Origin: Rhodospirillaceae bacterium | GTDB taxonomy: Bacteria > Pseudomonadota > Alphaproteobacteria > UBA7985 | Assembly (NCBI GenBank): GCA_038141425.1 | Contig: JAYQIC010000003.1 | Location: forward strand, 14,377-78,376 | DNA length: 64,000 nucleotides | Reading direction: 5' to 3' | Shown: piece by piece, positions 20,313-48,732 of the stretch | Position numbering within the stretch: position 1 is the first letter of the stretch | How the letters are laid out: each line of letters starts with the position of its first letter | Translations under genes and position numbers: made by a program | Notes under the pieces: model-generated | What the model saw: the letters and a program-made list of their open reading frames with translations, nothing else | Databases searched by the model: none | What the model was told of the DNA's origin: nothing

Positions 20313-20372
20313 GAGATTGGGGGCCTTAAGATTGGTAGCCGAGAGATTGAGGGCCGGGTGATGGGCATGGGC
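20313..20372. repeat. four tandem 15-bp direct repeats (rAGATTGnnGGCCnn) between dddP and the cupin gene
   Basis: The copies are gagattgggggcctt, aagattggtagccga, gagattgagggccgg and gtgatgggcatgggc, starting at 20313, 20328, 20343 and 20358. The fourth is degenerate. Confidence 0.6.
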
Positions 20373-20398
20373 TGTCTGAGGGCACGCAGCAGACTTCC

Positions 20399-21094
20399 AT
20401 GACGGGACAGTATGAGCGCGTGCGCCGGGTGATCGATGCTATTGCCGACGTGCTCCGTGCCTGCACGCTTGAGGGCGGTGCAACGGCCGAGGCTGCGCAA
20501 CGCACGCTCGACCGACTGGCGACGACAGCCCTGACGCCTGGGGCCTTCGCCGACCTTCCTCCACAATCTCCCGGCCGTCACCGCACCCTGCTCAACGAGG
20601 CGATCGAGCACATGCAGGCGCCCGGTTTGCTAGCTTTGCAGCAGGCGGTGCGTGAGGCGGTCGACGATCTGGTCTGGGCAGAGGATCAGATGAAGTACTA
20701 CGCCCCCGACGCCGACGTCGGAGCCGGCTATCGCCACGGTAACCTACACACGCTGCTGATCGGTCCCGGTGCCTGCGGCTTCGCGCACGCCGACTTCACG
20801 CTGGGCCTGTTCCTGCTGCACCCGCGCACGCTCTACCGAGACCACGCCCACCCGGCGCCGGAGACCTACGTGAACCTGTCGCCCCGCTCGGGCTGGCGGT
20901 TTGGGGAGGGCGACTGGCGTGACCTTGGCCCGGGCAGCCTCGTCTTCAACGCGCCGATGGCGCCGCACGCGACGCGATCCTACAAGCAGCCGTTTTTCTC
21001 GGTGTTTTCCTGGATCGAGGACATCGACAATCCCTGCGTTGTGCTCCCGCGCGATGACTGGACGGAGATCGAACGGGCCCTGCCACACCTGTGA
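20399..21094 (+). CDS. cupin protein of the DMSP-lyase family (DddL/DddQ-like)
   Basis: 231 aa. LYRDHAHPAPETYVNLS gives the H-x-H-x3-E-x-Y metal/Tyr motif of cupin DMSP lyases. A second cupin His lies in NAPMAPHATRS, and the tail is SWIEDI. The gene sits directly after dddP. Confidence 0.55.
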   Translation: MTGQYERVRRVIDAIADVLRACTLEGGATAEAAQRTLDRLATTALTPGAFADLPPQSPGRHRTLLNEAIEHMQAPGLLALQQAVREAVDDLVWAEDQMKYYAPDADVGAGYRHGNLHTLLIGPGACGFAHADFTLGLFLLHPRTLYRDHAHPAPETYVNLSPRSGWRFGEGDWRDLGPGSLVFNAPMAPHATRSYKQPFFSVFSWIEDIDNPCVVLPRDDWTEIERALPHL

Positions 21095-24713: not shown

Positions 24714-26206
24714 TCAGTCAGCCGGGTCGACGCCGTACACGCGGTAGCCGATATCGCCATCCCAGTCCGGGTGCGCCTTGGCCGGGTCCAGCGCTGCGCC
24801 TGCGCGGTCGATCCTGTCGCGGCACAGGTCGGCGATGCTGGCGTAGCCCGCCTTGCCCGCCGCCGAAGTCGGCTCCACCGGCACGTCGAGTTGCACCAGC
24901 ACGAACCGCCGCCGCTGCCCGTCTTCGGCATTGAGCGAGAGCAGTGCATCGGCTGTCGTCCCCGACCCGCCGAAGAAGTCCAGCACGATGTCATCCCCCT
25001 GCGTGGTGAAGGCGAGCAGGTCGCGCATCAGGCGGATGTGCTTGGGGTTGAGGAAGACCTTGGCCCCCATCAGCCGGGTCAGATACTGGGTATTATACTG
25101 GGCATCGTAGAGGCCGAGCGAGGACTTGATCGGGATGTTGGCGTTGCGGAATTCGTTGAAATATTCCTTCATCCGCACCTGCCCGGTCTCGGACTTGGGG
25201 AAGATCAGCTCGCCCGCCGCTGCCTTGCGCGCCATCTCCGCCGGGCTGAAGGCCCAGACATCGCGAAACCGTCTTCCGGTCGCCGGGTCTTCGACGTCGA
25301 AGGCTTCGCGCGGGTCTTTCACCGTGGATTTGCAGTTGGTGTTGCGCCAGGGACCGCGTGGGTCGTTGTCGGGGTTTTCGAAGCCCTCCGGGCTGCGCGG
25401 TCGCCCGATGAAGGAAAAGGCCGAAGAGCGCTGGAACACCAGCAGGTATTCGTGCACCCCGGCGATCATCTGCGCCGGTGGGACACCCTTGGCCGAGGAT
25501 TTCTTGTCATAGACCATGCACTCGACGAAGTTCTCGGCCCCGAACACCTCCTCGCACAGCTTCCACAGGTTCGGCAGCTCGTTCTCATCAATGGAGATGA
25601 CGATGCAGCCGTCTTCGCGGAGCAGTTCGCGGGCCACCTCCAGCCGTGGTAGCATGAAGCTCAGCCAGTCGGCATGAAAGCGGCCGTGGTGGTCGGCGTC
25701 TTCGCCGCCCTGCTGCGGTTCTGTCGCCGCTGCCTTGGGCTTGCGCGCGGTGTAGGAGCGCAGGCTTTCGCGGAAGTTATCCGGGAAAATAAACGCATTG
25801 CCGGTGTTGTAGGGCGGATCGATGTAGATCAGCCGAACCTGCCCGGCGAGGTCGCCGATTTCCGGCTCGGTAGCTGACCCGGCCCGCAGCAGCTTCAGCG
25901 CGGTGAGGTTGTCGCCGACGATCAGCCGGTGTCCGGTGGTCTCGGGTGACTTGCTCAGGTCGGGGCGGGGTGGAGCCGCCCTTCGGGGGGTGCCGCAGCC
26001 TGCCGCCGGGCCTCGGCCTTTCCCGGCCAGGTGAAGGCGTAGGTTTCAGCCGCGAGGCGATCCTCGCCCAGCTCGGCCTGCAGGGCGGCGCTCAGCCGTT
26101 CGGGGTCGACACGCCGGGTGACGGCGCCCGTGCTCGGGTCGCGGGTCTCGATCACGCTCTCCGGAAACAGCCGCTGGAGCCCGGTGATTTTATCGTCTGG
26201 CGTCAT
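24714..26206 (-). CDS. mod: type III restriction-modification Mod-like N6-adenine DNA methyltransferase (solitary); frame broken once
   Basis: The N-terminus has LFPESV..YAFTWPGK. It then has LIVGDNLTALKLL, motif IV IYIDPPYNTGN, HADWLSFMLPRLEVARELLREDGCIVISIDENE, and motif I LDFFGGSGTT. This order and these segments parallel EcoP15I Mod as I recall it. The break lies somewhere in 25950..25990, a C/G-run region. Confidence 0.8.
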
Positions 26207-45143: not shown

Positions 45144-45416
45144 GGAGCGGTCTTCCTTCAAGGCTTCTGACCCAAGGCCGGTCAGGGGCAAGTCTGTGAC
45201 GTTAGCACCGGTTCCGCCCGCAAGACCATGGAAACCGTTCGGCGTTTACACAGCGCCGGACCGCTGCTGCCGGATCTCGCCCAGATGGCCTCGATGGGTG
45301 CCGGTGCGGGAGAGAGGCAAAACGTTACAAAGCGACACTTACCGTTTCTGATCGAGAAGTTCGTTTCCACTAGTGTCCCGACATCGACAAAGAAATGACC
45401 TAAGGAACCAACACCG

Positions 45417-45782
45417 ATGAAAACCGCTATCGCTCTGTTCGCCGCTGCTCTGTCTGTTGCAGCCCTCTCCACCAACGCCTCTGCTCAGCAACGCATGGCG
45501 AGCAACCTTGGAACCACTTTCCCATCGGTTGTGACTGAAAAGGGTTCAAATGTCCTGCAACAGGCAGGCGCTTCCATGAACACTGGTAACCGTAGCAGCG
45601 TTTCAGTTGCACCAATCCCAAGCCCAAATCCTCGCGTGAAGGTTCCTGCACCTGATAAGCATGATGCTACTCAGACTCAGACTCCATTTCAGACCACAGC
45701 CTTCCCAACAGAAGAATGGATGCCTTCGGCAAAACCTGCCGCCAAACACATCCTTCGGCAGCCGCAGTGGTGGTGGCATTAA
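45417..45782 (+). CDS. hypothetical small secreted protein (Ser/Thr/Pro/Gln-rich)
   Basis: AAGGAA RBS and signal peptide MKTAIALFAAALSVAALSTNASA. The local GC is lower than the flanks, and the protein ends ..RQPQWWWH. Confidence 0.45.
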   Translation: MKTAIALFAAALSVAALSTNASAQQRMASNLGTTFPSVVTEKGSNVLQQAGASMNTGNRSSVSVAPIPSPNPRVKVPAPDKHDATQTQTPFQTTAFPTEEWMPSAKPAAKHILRQPQWWWH

Positions 45783-45822
45783 GCTCGTTTCTCAGTCGGC
45801 CGGTATCGCGGTTGAAAAGGCC

Positions 45823-46308
45823 ATGAACTCTGGTTCCAGCGATGAGAATATCGCGGCGGCAGCCTGCACAACGCCCGTGAACAACGCCTTAATCGCTGTC
45901 GTGATCATTGCCGCGGTGGACGCCGATAACTGCCCGAAGCCCCAGGCGGCGACGGCGATTGAGTACGGCCTGATTGCGGCACTGGTCGGCGGTGGCCCGG
46001 ATGCGACCGACACCACCACCACCGGTGAGGCGGAGCCTGAGGCAGCGACGGCCATCGAGTACGGTCTGATCGCGGCGCTGATCGGCGGCGGGCCGGATGC
46101 GACCGACACCACCACCACCGGTGAGGCGGAGCCTGAGGCAGCGACGGCCATTGAGTACGGCCTGATCGCCGCTCTGACCAGCAATGGTCCGGACGTTACC
46201 GACACCGTCTATGCGATGCTCATCCTTCCCGCAGACACTCATCCCCAATTCCCCGATCTTGCAGGGGCTGCTCCACCACGCGGCCCCTGTTTTCATTTTC
46301 GATCCTGA
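45823..46308 (+). CDS. ORF carrying three tandem Flp-pilin boxes (ATAIEYGLIAAL) separated by acidic Thr-rich linkers
   Basis: ATG 45823 lies within ORF 45661..46308. The protein reads MNSGSSDEN..ALIAVVIIAAVDADNCPKPQ-[AATAIEYGLIAALVGGGPDATDTTTTGEAEPE]-[AATAIEYGLIAALIGGGPDATDTTTTGEAEPE]-[AATAIEYGLIAALTSNGPDVTDT...]. Differences between copies are almost all synonymous in this frame. Confidence 0.5.
   Translation: MNSGSSDENIAAAACTTPVNNALIAVVIIAAVDADNCPKPQAATAIEYGLIAALVGGGPDATDTTTTGEAEPEAATAIEYGLIAALIGGGPDATDTTTTGEAEPEAATAIEYGLIAALTSNGPDVTDTVYAMLILPADTHPQFPDLAGAAPPRGPCFHFRS
45946..46206 (+). repeat. 96-bp tandem repeat, about 2.7 copies, coding
   Basis: The units start at 45946, 46042 and 46138. 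The last 42 nt of units 1 and 2 are identical. The first 54 nt differ at 9 positions. Confidence 0.85.
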
Positions 46309-46477
46309 AAACACGGCCTTCACAAATTTTGAGCAAAGGCACTGTGCGCCGCACAAAGAATCTTCATCGCTCCGGAATCGGCGTTGCCGCCGGCTCGGTT
46401 CAAGGCACCTTCGGCAGCGTTCGTGCAGAAGTATCGTCACCGCGCATTACCCCCTCGCAGCGTTCTAGCCACAGGGG

Positions 46478-47218
46478 GTGACGCCTCAGGGTTCGCCCCG
46501 GCTTTCTGCCACTGTCGTGTTGATCAGAAGGGCGAAGGCTTTGGAGTTCCGCTTTTTCGAAATCTATCGGAATACAGAGTATCTGCTGTTGCTCGCCAAG
46601 GGCGCGCTGCTCAGCGGCGGCATCACGGTCCTCGCCGCCACCTTCGGCCTCATCATAGCTTTCGCCATCGCCGGGGTCCGGTTTGCGCGGGTGCCGGTCC
46701 TGACCCAGCTGACGGCCGCCTATGTCGAGTTCATCCGCAACACGCCGCTGATCGTGCAGCTGTTCTTCATCGCCTTCGGCCTGCCGCTGCTGCTGGGCTA
46801 CGAGTGGCCATTCTGGGCGCACGCGCTGCTCTCGCTCAGCATCAATTTTTCAGGCTATTTCGCCGAAATCCTGCGCGCGGGACTGGAGAACGCGGACTCA
46901 GGCCAGCGTGAGGCCGCCCGGGCGCTGGGGCTGCGCCCCCGACCGATCTTCTTCCTCGTCATCACCCCCGTTGCCATCGCAACTATGTTTGCGAGCCTGA
47001 ACAGCCAGTTCATCTTCCTGTTCCTGACCACTGGCATCATCTCCGAAATCGGGGTCGCCGACCTGACCCAGGCAGGGCTGTATATCGACAGCCGTACCTT
47101 CCGCACCTTCGAAGTCTTTCTGGTCCTGACCGCGATCTACATCGGCATTTCCATGCTGTTCAAAGCCGTGCTGGCGCTGGTCGAGCGGCGCCTGTTTCCG
47201 TGGAAGTTCGTGCGATGA
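46478..47218 (+). CDS. polar amino-acid ABC transporter permease (His/Glu/Gln/Arg/opine family)
   Basis: EFIRNTPLIVQLFFIAFGLP and the EAARALGL EAA loop. The true start is probably internal (for example TTG 46541, after GAAGG). Confidence 0.8.
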   Translation: MTPQGSPRLSATVVLIRRAKALEFRFFEIYRNTEYLLLLAKGALLSGGITVLAATFGLIIAFAIAGVRFARVPVLTQLTAAYVEFIRNTPLIVQLFFIAFGLPLLLGYEWPFWAHALLSLSINFSGYFAEILRAGLENADSGQREAARALGLRPRPIFFLVITPVAIATMFASLNSQFIFLFLTTGIISEIGVADLTQAGLYIDSRTFRTFEVFLVLTAIYIGISMLFKAVLALVERRLFPWKFVR

Positions 47219-47916
47219 AGGAGCTGCTGGTATCCCTGCTCGGAAAGCCCGAGGGCATCGTTCTGTTCCAGCTGATCATGGCGGCGCGGTTCACGGTGCT
47301 GCTGTCTCTGCTGGCCTTTATCGGTGGTGGTCTGGTTGGGGCGATCGTCTGCGCCTTCAGGGTATCGCCTTCTTCGGTGCTGCAGCGCGTTGGCGGGGCC
47401 TACGTCTGGCTGTTCCAGTCGACACCGCTGCTGATGCTGCTGTTCATCATCGGGCTGGGCCTGCCCAAGTTCACCGGGATGGAGGTCAATCCATGGACCG
47501 CCGCCGGGTTCGCCCTGACGCTCTACGCCAGCGCCTATCTCGCCGAAGTCTGGCGCGGGGCCATCGCCTCGATCCCGGCCGGGCAGTGGGAGGCCGGGCG
47601 TGCGCTGGGCCTGAATTTCTTCCGCACGCTGGGGCTGATCATCGTGCCGCAAGCCGTGCGCGGCACGCTGGCGCCCACCGTCGGCTTCATGGTGCAGATT
47701 ATCAAGGGCACATCGCTGGCCTACATCATCGGCTTCCACGACCTGATGAGTGTCGGCAAGCGCTGGGCGAATGCGTCCGTTCCCGGTACTGAGGCCTTCC
47801 TGATCTATCCGCTGCTCGCGCTGTTCTACTTCGCGCTGTGCTTCCCGCTTTCAACCTATTCACGCTGGCTCGAGAGCCGGCTTGGATCAGCAGCCCGATC
47901 TCCGACGGCTGCCTGA
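47215..47916 (+). CDS. polar amino-acid ABC transporter permease
   Basis: WLFQSTPLLMLLFIIGLGLP and the WEAGRALGL EAA loop. There is an ATGA overlap with the upstream permease. Confidence 0.85.
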   Translation: MKELLVSLLGKPEGIVLFQLIMAARFTVLLSLLAFIGGGLVGAIVCAFRVSPSSVLQRVGGAYVWLFQSTPLLMLLFIIGLGLPKFTGMEVNPWTAAGFALTLYASAYLAEVWRGAIASIPAGQWEAGRALGLNFFRTLGLIIVPQAVRGTLAPTVGFMVQIIKGTSLAYIIGFHDLMSVGKRWANASVPGTEAFLIYPLLALFYFALCFPLSTYSRWLESRLGSAARSPTAA

Positions 47917-47949
47917 CAACTCCCCACCAAGAAATGAGGTAACTGAGCA

Positions 47950-48732
47950 ATGAAATCCCTGAAAATCTGGCTTTCCGGCCTTGCCCTTTCCGCCAGCGTT
48001 GCGACCGTGGCACAGGCTGAACTGAGCGACATCCTGAGCTCGGGCACGGTCAAGATCGCCGTTCCGGAAAACTTTCCACCCTTTGGTGCGCTGGGCATCG
48101 AAGGTGAATATGAAGGCTACGACGTCGACGTTGCTAAGCTGATCGCTGCTGACCTTGGCGTCGAGCTGGAGCTGGTGCCCGTCACCTCGAAGCAGCGCAT
48201 TCCTTTCCTCGAAACCGACAAGGTTGACCTCGTGATCGCGACCATGGGTGCCAACCCGGGCCGGGCCAAGTCGATCTGGTTCTCTTCGGCCTACGCGCCG
48301 TTCTTCTCCGGGGCCTTCGCTGCCAGCACGCTGGACATCAGCGGTCCGGCTGATCTCGCCGGCCTGAAGGTCGGTCTGACCGGCGGTACGCTGGAAGATC
48401 TGGAGTTGACCGAAAGCGCGCCTGCGGGCACGGAGATCATTCGCTTCGGCGACAACGCGGCGACCCGCGCAGCCTTCCTCTCCGGCCAGGTCGATGTCCT
48501 TGTGACCGGTAACACCGTGGCGGCGGGCCTGTCGGAAGAAAACCCCGACCTCGACATCGCCACCAAGTTCATCATCAAGGAATCCCCGGCCTTCATCGGC
48601 GTGAAGAAGGGCAACATGGACCTGCTGCAGTGGGTGAACGTGTTCATCCTGCACAAGAAGCTTGGCGGAGACCTTAACGAGCTTTCCGAAAAGTGGCTGG
48701 GCCAGCCGCTGCCACCACTGCCAACCATGTAA
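47950..48732 (+). CDS. amino-acid ABC transporter substrate-binding protein (family 3)
   Basis: Signal peptide, then GTVKIAVPENFPPFG..GYDVDVAKLIAADLG, typical of family 3 SBPs. Confidence 0.85.
   Translation: MKSLKIWLSGLALSASVATVAQAELSDILSSGTVKIAVPENFPPFGALGIEGEYEGYDVDVAKLIAADLGVELELVPVTSKQRIPFLETDKVDLVIATMGANPGRAKSIWFSSAYAPFFSGAFAASTLDISGPADLAGLKVGLTGGTLEDLELTESAPAGTEIIRFGDNAATRAAFLSGQVDVLVTGNTVAAGLSEENPDLDIATKFIIKESPAFIGVKKGNMDLLQWVNVFILHKKLGGDLNELSEKWLGQPLPPLPTM

Follow-up and report, generated by a model that had tools for sequence, protein, structure and literature searches.

We describe a gene with internal copies of the Flp pilin motif, found in a 64,000-nucleotide stretch of contig JAYQIC010000003.1 from a Rhodospirillaceae bacterium (hereafter the window, meaning the whole stretch analysed). 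The gene starts at position 45417 on the plus strand, and its 3' part is a tandem repeat of 32-residue units, each opening with a 13-residue copy of the N-terminus of mature Flp pilins (the Flp box). The product is a real protein under purifying selection, and it is not a pilin. The reading that we prefer, with a probability of roughly 55%, is that of an exported, disordered protein in which the Flp boxes act as short hydrophobic association modules.

Tandem Flp boxes under selection

The repeat extends over positions 45944-46206, with a period of 96, 2.7 copies and 86% matches (Tandem Repeats Finder), which confirms the 96-bp unit in about 2.7 copies that the original prediction had read from the letters alone. 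The units begin at 45946, 46042 and 46138. In the plus frame they read AATAIEYGLIAAL and then V/I-GGGPDATDTTTTGEAEPE, with an Ala preceding all three boxes. After its box, the third unit diverges from the GGGPDATDTTTTGEAEPE linker, and its tail is kept in orthologues as TSNGPDVT(D/E)TVYA(M/E)xEFE.

45946..46041, plus strand: repeat unit 1, AATAIEYGLIAAL (Flp box) followed by VGGGPDATDTTTTGEAEPE
46042..46137, plus strand: repeat unit 2, AATAIEYGLIAAL followed by IGGGPDATDTTTTGEAEPE
46138..46219, plus strand: repeat unit 3, box and diverged tail, AATAIEYGLIAAL followed by TSNGPDVTDTVYAM

The boxes change silently. Unit 1 differs from unit 2, over the first 17 codons, by 8 synonymous changes and one V/I change, and the 13 box codons of units 2 and 3 differ by 4 synonymous and 0 replacement changes, which reproduces the earlier counts exactly. 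Over the three pairwise comparisons of the 13 box codons, the plus frame accumulates 15 synonymous and 0 non-synonymous changes; in each of the five remaining frames they yield 0-9 synonymous and 9-17 non-synonymous ones. Two minus-strand open reading frames (ORFs), at 45792-46205 and 45889-46440, were rejected, having no Pfam match and a non-synonymous substitution pattern. Between orthologues, omega (the ratio of non-synonymous to synonymous rates) is 0.06-0.25, with a synonymous distance (dS) of up to 0.88 (Nei-Gojobori, 62 codons, from the conserved module into box 1). The view that the plus-strand peptide is under purifying selection is thus upheld, both by boxes that are synonymous-only in this frame alone and by omega.

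In terms of Pfam domains, PF04964 (Flp_Fap) matches the plus-strand ORF with E=7.8e-16, in three stretches that each cover profile positions 6-20 of 46. These positions are the Flp motif itself, so the likeness of the boxes to the true motif is confirmed. A PF04964 run had been proposed along with the original prediction: the whole-protein score does lie above threshold (56-58 bits against a cut-off of 32.2), and it is the sum of three partial matches to the motif only. A six-frame motif scan found no further Flp-like boxes in the 64 kb.

Two independent JGI metagenome contigs (L001 and L002) carry a three-box array identical to that of the window save at synonymous sites. The box differences are two synonymous positions in box 1, and L002 has one more synonymous TAT/TAC change farther downstream. 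Because the array recurs in both contigs, it is not an assembly artefact of the window, an outcome named beforehand as one that would refute the original prediction. The guanine-cytosine (GC) content is 0.53-0.56 at 45250-45849, against about 0.58-0.71 in most of the flanks. This lower-GC spacer was seen again as first described, together with the Ala before each box and a hydrophobic ALIAVVIIAAV piece upstream.

One gene split by a frameshift

The original prediction had placed the boxes in a 161-residue ORF behind a separate small signal-peptide ORF. Alignment with L001 and L002 reveals a single gene, in which a frameshift has split the two: the ORF at 45417-45782 and the ORF at 45661/45823-46308 are its halves. 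A database search with the 215-residue ORF finds relatives of 200-271 residues, which match 73% of the query and extend far upstream. Their sequences open with the window's signal-peptide ORF and run on into the box ORF. One of these, P0001 (271 residues), is 100% identical to the window's second ORF over the aligned part and also holds the sequence of the first. Alignment A1 joins the window to L001 and L002, both of which encode intact P0001. The two lesions that it shows are given here with the signals around the gene.

45401..45405, plus strand: Shine-Dalgarno-like AAGGA, 11 nt upstream of the ATG at 45417 (read from the sequence)
45742..45743, plus strand: frameshift by one extra C, GCCGCCAAAC against GCCGCAAAC in the intact copies (alignment A1)
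46220..46223, plus strand: indel, TCAT in place of the 15 nt CTGAGTTCGAGTAAG (PEFE and the stop in the intact copies; alignment A1)
46261..46290, plus strand: terminator-like GC-rich hairpin and then TTTCATTTTC, downstream of the native stop and conserved in L001 and L002

The indel at 46220-46223 removes the native stop, so the ORF reads through, across the hairpin, to a TGA ending at 46308. The native end of the gene lies near 46230, and the repeat is the 3' part of the gene that starts at 45417. The C-terminal extension of the window's ORF is present in no database protein, the best matches spanning only 73% of the 215 residues. An exact-sequence look-up of the window's three ORF products also found none, because this copy is uniquely disrupted. 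DNA similarity to two paralogous loci, L005 and L006, begins about 20 nt upstream of the ATG. A promoter scan upstream of the gene gave nothing, nor did Rfam and tRNA scans of the window.

The lesions have company. Between 37.3 and 45.2 kb, comparison with three related assemblies reveals 16 indels private to the window, of lengths not divisible by three and mostly of 1 bp, at sites that include 37838, 38380, 38726, 38755, 39063, 39742, 40117, 40213, 40286, 41708 and 45003. These break an FAD-binding/cNMP-binding gene (at least 4 frame changes), an aminotransferase gene and the adjacent EamA gene. Each of the three related assemblies has 0-1 such private indels, and the window itself has 0 at 46.3-49.4 kb. 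The disruption of the window's copy is either sequencing error or local gene decay. Elsewhere in the window, several Pfam matches are partial (Aldedh 183-461, Peptidase_M24 67-208, GCV_T 3-107), which suggests further frameshifts.

Architecture of the intact protein

Intact relatives, of 200-271 residues, are composed of a signal peptide, a variable Pro/Thr-rich region, a 55-residue module, 1-3 units and an acidic tail. The parts upstream of the repeat are as follows.

45417..45485, plus strand: Sec-type signal peptide MKTAIALFAAALSVAALSTNASA, predicted cut after ASA; first 23 codons identical in P0001
45486..45741, plus strand: variable Pro/Thr/Ser/Gln-rich N-terminal module in the frame of ATG 45417; unalignable to the syntenic locus L003, 90-92% DNA identity to L005 and L006
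45781..45945, plus strand: conserved 55-residue module KLVSQSAGIAVEKAMNSGSSDENIAAAACTTPVNNALIAVVIIAAVDADNCPKPQ, containing two cysteines and almost without variation in alignments A3 and A4

The N-terminal region meets the conserved module at a junction motif, TSFGSRSGGG(I/F)KL. The module contains the ALIAVVIIAAV piece and, searched alone against Pfam, has no match at E<=10. In P0001 the boxes begin at residues 177, 209 and 241, behind Ala 176, 208 and 240, and the protein ends in the tail TSNGPDVTDTVYAMPEFE.

By a rule-based check, the signal of P0001 consists of MK, a 15-residue hydrophobic core and STNASA, followed by QQ. The pattern A-[ST]-A is found at -3 to -1 in 62/62 signal-bearing family members, across two divergent signal types. 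As for the cysteines, their number in the mature part is even in 57 of the 62 members and exactly two in 51, and such pairing points to export. From these sequence features we infer Sec-dependent export, with signal peptidase I cutting after ASA.

The mature protein would be disulfide-bonded, acidic and largely disordered. Net charge is -15 to -19 in the 271-residue three-box forms, and about -2 to -38 over full-length members. AlphaFold gave a mean pLDDT (predicted local distance difference test) of 32.5 for the full protein (18 sequences) and 33.4 for the C-terminal half (24 sequences); the models show nothing but short helices over the boxes. Searches of PDB sequences, NCBIfam, PADLOC and PHROGs returned nothing significant. 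In terms of membrane insertion, the best mature segment has a 19-residue Hessa sum of +4.2 and a box one of about +9, while real Flp scores +1.1 to +1.5.

Comparison with Flp pilins and prepilin-peptidase substrates

A set of 120 real Flp pilins, a phylogenetically narrow sample, was used as the yardstick. In all 120 the motif follows a basic leader and lies close to the N-terminus; they are 52-93 residues long, and the uncharged stretch from +1 covers 21-32 residues. At the boxes of the window this stretch is 13-17 residues, then Pro-Asp, so the pilin's hydrophobic helix is indeed absent, as originally stated. The small Flp pilins also contrast in size with the family, at 200-271 residues and up to 466 in paralogues. 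No tad/cpa or flp genes were found in 30 further ORFs of the window, in the Pfam-annotated flanks of L003-L006, which extend over 10 kb at L003, or in a motif scan of the fetched loci; the original prediction had already remarked on the absence of tad/cpa genes nearby. The protein therefore fails as a pilin by N-terminal motif position, hydrophobic helix, size and gene linkage.

The boxes themselves are close to the real motif. A hidden Markov model (HMM) built from the 120 pilins gives each box 20-24 bits and has no other significant match in the protein. Single-box relatives score 11-23.5 bits, against the PF04964 cut-off of 32.2. Relatives are automatically annotated by JGI as 'Flp pilus assembly pilin Flp'. 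The residue at -1 is Gly in 102/120 real Flp and Ala in 18/120 (K-A-ATAIEY). The prepilins with Ala (P0091, P0095, P0098 ... P0202) read K-A-ATAIEYGLIAALIAV, one being annotated as Sphingomonas oligophenolica. Natural Flp prepilins with Ala at -1 imply that the GXXXXEY rule is not absolute, and the Ala before each box, first presented as odd, is a weak oddity.

These comparisons bear on a proposal made with the original prediction, that of a multi-core precursor in which a TadV/CpaA-type peptidase would cut before each ATAIEY box and free peptides of about 32 residues. Cleavage by prepilin peptidases takes place at the cytoplasmic face, on class III signal peptides that are anchored in the membrane. 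TadV/CpaA cuts the leader at the GXXXXEY motif of membrane-inserted prepilins (PMC10934763). The 13-residue box, Thr2, Glu5 and Tyr6 included, is identical to real Flp, with its 20-24 bits and an Ala at -1 that is natural in 18 of the 120; it is under strict purifying selection, and regular units with acidic linkers do look like multi-core precursors. However, the conserved Sec-type signal peptide and the paired cysteines stand against such cleavage. A GGGPD follows after 13 residues and the boxes cannot span a membrane (Hessa sum about +9). They have no basic leader, the preceding residues being acidic, more distant paralogues lose Glu5, and the three different genomic contexts hold no peptidase, tad or flp gene.

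With no membrane-grade segment in the mature part, the membrane would separate the boxes from the active site of the peptidase. Being non-anchoring, placed after acidic linkers and behind a Sec signal, they are poor cleavage candidates, and probably not TadV/CpaA substrates. Given A-[ST]-A in 62/62, even cysteine counts in 57/62 and the Hessa scores, we regard the multi-core precursor as highly improbable. The protein may instead be a decoy or regulator of a prepilin peptidase, which had been raised as a further alternative. Reading LIGG as part of a double-glycine leader (C39 peptidase) was rejected on inspection: the hydrophobic spacing misfits and unit 3 is without GG.

A mosaic family with varying copy number

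Window positions 45397-45785, with the signal peptide and the variable module, are 90-92% identical to L005:1724-2111 and L006:1941-2290. The window's 5' module is unalignable to syntenic L003, though the L003 flanks are 89-96% identical. Such sequence relations indicate module exchange between paralogues, with a junction at TSFG(S/T)RSGGG(I/F)KL. The genomic contexts of the paralogues are a resolvase and znuABC in L005, and dsbA, rlpA and a PBP5-type gene in L006. Distant members join the same signal peptide and TSFGTRSGGGFKLAS junction to other modules, among them AIGIIHPDYVPIDPE repeats and a KTFDYCVIYPERC...PTFGPH tail, and they have relaxed boxes (AMAYRLIAALIEG, ATAEDYALIASLIG, AIAYGLIAAMIEG).

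Copy number also varies. One cluster at 90% identity has members of 271, 239 and 207 residues with 3, 2 and 1 boxes. The N-terminal Pro-rich repeats differ among close relatives (P0002-P0016, P0024), with DTTPPTFGVS present 2-4 times, IAVQSPFKP 2-3 times and TQVQSPFQT 2-3 times. The N-terminal region of the window has a small ACTCAG repeat of 2.7 copies at 45669-45684. Four paralogues (P0029, P0033, P0068, P0070) have the motif (E/G)AIG(I/V)IHP(S/D)Y(V/I)P(I/N)(D/P)PE in 2-3 tandem copies, and a C-terminal two-cysteine module, KTFDYCVIYPERCTVSEIERPTFGPHILTFDD. The window's orthologues have an 'MPH' allele whose mature N-terminus carries the PHI(L/V)TFD element again.

This mosaicism speaks for a second alternative, a variable exported or surface protein unrelated to Tad pili (for example in adhesion, or in phage or grazer evasion), whose box would be a captured or convergent hydrophobic spacer. 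It fits with the replacement of the N-terminal half amid flanks of 87-96% identity, and with the varying number of both Flp units and Pro-rich repeats. The genes lie in several contexts with no conserved neighbour: no maturation protease, modifying enzyme or exporter is shared between the EamA/ABC permease, resolvase/ZnuABC and DsbA/RlpA/PBP5 surroundings. Predicted disorder also agrees, as does the absence of a strict box from 15 of the 62 signal-bearing sequences, several of those being short, truncated calls. But 13/13 identity to the Flp consensus, kept with synonymous-only change, is hard to credit to a generic spacer, and the surface location is hypothetical. We hold this alternative to be possible, though rather unlikely.

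Locus and distribution

The gene order EamA, box gene, two ATP-binding cassette (ABC) permeases and solute-binding protein is annotated in L003 and L004. Five further loci (L007-L011) align with the same part of the window, their DNA identity to it being 87-93%; for L003 the figure reaches 96%. The comparison of the EamA-ABC spacer that had been called for thus places the gene at syntenic loci, while box copy number varies in the family. Four contigs (L007, L009, L010, L011) have the gene intact; in L003 and L004, both 'pilon' long-read assemblies, it is frameshifted, and in L008 the end of the contig cuts it. The metagenome scan revealed at least 3 loci, and intact ORFs were found in dozens of independent metagenome sequences.

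The family is rare. In a genome scan with alignment A3, only 2 GTDB species genomes have the gene, both metagenome-assembled genomes (MAGs), 'Alphaproteobacteria bacterium Co_bin_450_strict' and 'Geminicoccus sp. SP156'. The NCBI names of relatives are those of Rhodospirillaceae, Alphaproteobacteria and Geminicoccus MAGs, so the host probably does not belong to the Rhodobacteraceae, the family named in the original prediction. Among 1.84 billion representative proteins, a full HMMER search gave only 20 at E<=1e-3, with P0082 among them as a spurious match. P0082 (281 residues) is a mis-called read-through of two ordinary flp genes and so has an artefactual double Flp box. The family is tiny, mosaic and confined to uncultured marine alphaproteobacteria.

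Downstream, window positions 46478-48732 (and L003:11719-13234) encode two ABC permeases and a family-3 solute-binding protein. The operon had been described as lacking its ATPase, and indeed the annotation of L003 shows none for about 10 kb downstream. A megablast of 43-49 kb against plasmids gave one trivial 64-bp match. The window also carries a dimethylsulfoniopropionate (DMSP) lyase-family gene (PF16867), that fits a marine host, and an N6/N4 DNA methylase gene (20351-21091, 24717-26045).

A further question is the origin of the gene. By eye, MKTAIALFAAALSVAAL...NLGTTFPSVV and SSDENIAAAACTTPVNNALIAVVIIAAV resemble degenerate Flp prepilins (P0001 residues 1-39 and 140-167; window 45417-45533 and about 45838-45921). 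The upstream module shares, again by eye, some 15/25 positions with what we take to be the alphaproteobacterial Flp consensus, a lead and not a result. With our home-made Flp HMM, the comparison of signal peptide plus NLGTTF with Flp helix plus GTSLKTTF gives 3 bits, which is not significant. There are hints at descent of the whole gene from a fused flp array, at HMM scores of 3 and about 1 bit that carry no statistical support. The idea of a permuted flp remnant likewise has no statistical support: the Flp HMM gives ALIAVVIIAAV 0.8-1.0 bit, and BLASTP finds no alignment to real Flp.

Could the gene then be a non-functional remnant of a former flp array? The frameshift and lost stop of the window would agree, along with the window-private frameshifts in neighbouring genes, the lack of a predicted fold or of any family match beyond the motif, and the resemblance by eye of SSDEN-IAAAACTTPVNN-ALIAVVIIAAV to a degenerate Flp prepilin. 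For the window's copy alone this is plausible; a pseudogene and a sequencing error are both possible. For the family it is very unlikely. Dozens of independent metagenome sequences have intact ORFs, omega is 0.06-0.25, the signal peptide, cysteine pair and terminator are conserved, and the Flp likeness of the upstream module has no statistical support.

Proposed role of the boxes

We return to the exported, disordered protein with association modules. It would leave the cytoplasm through Sec, lose its signal peptide to signal peptidase I with a cut after ASA, and form its disulfide. The disordered acidic chain would then display 1-3 short hydrophobic helices, the Flp boxes, which are too short to span the membrane and would end outside the cytoplasm. 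Being both too short and outside, the boxes would be neither class III signal peptides nor cut by TadV/CpaA. Copy number would change by unequal recombination of the 96-bp unit.

In the Tad pilus of Caulobacter, Flp residues 1-9 form the tightly packed hydrophobic filament core, with Tyr6 placed beneath the N-terminus of the following subunit (PMC10710030). As the same peptide packs pilus subunits, our best guess is that it is reused here in protein-protein association. This could be self-association, surface binding, or docking onto the Flp/Tad machinery.

A more specific version, pilin mimicry, has the cell's own Flp pilin or Tad machinery as the partner. It is favoured by the 13/13 identity of the boxes, kept by synonymous-only change; we nevertheless think it unlikely. 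More speculative, and quite improbable, is a secreted 'poly-Flp-N-terminus' pilin mimic that docks from the periplasmic side on the Flp/Tad platform, whole or as peptides of about 32 residues. Such a protein might cap, poison, regulate or decorate Tad pili, and diversify by recombination.

Several points weigh against the proposed role. In more distant paralogues the box is relaxed at Glu5 (AMAYRLIAAL, AIAYGLIAAM), so a generic hydrophobic module fits better than specific pilin mimicry. The Kyte-Doolittle average in a 19-residue window over IAAAACTTPVNNALIAVVIIAAV (residues 145-167) is 1.75-1.87, above the classical 1.6 cut-off, so that a stop-transfer segment that would leave the boxes cytoplasmic is conceivable. 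Furthermore, export is predicted from sequence rules and cysteine parity, and the association step is pure inference.

Significance and comparison with known systems

To our knowledge, the Flp motif is otherwise confined to Tad pilins and pseudopilins, where it stands at the N-terminus as a signal for processing and packing. The literature that was available to search held no description of internal tandem or multi-box Flp proteins. The protein is a new architecture on a known motif, in a lineage-restricted, uncharacterised family that no curated family fits beyond the motif. Here the motif is internal, tandem and selected, in a non-pilin with predicted Sec export, which would mean either co-option as a free module or an undescribed interaction with the pilus. 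If true, a pilin mimic would be a previously undescribed control or modification of type IVc pili. Without a demonstrated link to pili, a family of about 20 clusters in one marine clade has limited general importance. The case also holds two lessons for annotation. The automatic 'Flp pilin' label on these proteins is wrong, a trap in which three partial matches suffice to pass the Pfam threshold, and it took no more than one frameshift to make two misleading ORFs out of one gene.

As for known systems, mosaic variable secreted or surface families, as a generic class, share with this one a conserved signal peptide, shuffled modules, repeat polymorphism, multiple loci and low-complexity acidic Pro/Thr-rich sequence. 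In contrast to them, no anchoring signal (lipobox, sortase-type or C-terminal sorting motif) was seen in the protein.

Multi-core precursor peptides, such as those of cyanobactins or the fungal Kex2-cut ones (e.g. ustiloxin), are generally known to have N-terminal targeting, tandem near-identical cores, linkers and variable copy number, all of which are found here. The family differs in its large conserved non-repeat modules, in having no recognised cleavage sites and in having no protease, maturase or transporter next to it, whichever of the three contexts is taken.

TadE/TadF pseudopilins and other class III substrates have a G/A-XXXX-E-(Y/F)-type motif that is recognised by TadV (PMC10934763). 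In these the motif is single and N-terminal, a membrane anchor follows it and the genes lie in tad loci, none of which applies here.

Lastly, the Flp/Fap major pilins of Tad (type IVc) pili (PF04964; Caulobacter PilA, Aggregatibacter Flp1) differ in that the motif is here internal, in 1-3 copies and followed by GGGPD, in a protein with a Sec signal and no tad linkage. The two share ATAIEYGLIAAL(I/V), that is the mature Flp N-terminus with its Thr2, Glu5 and Tyr6.

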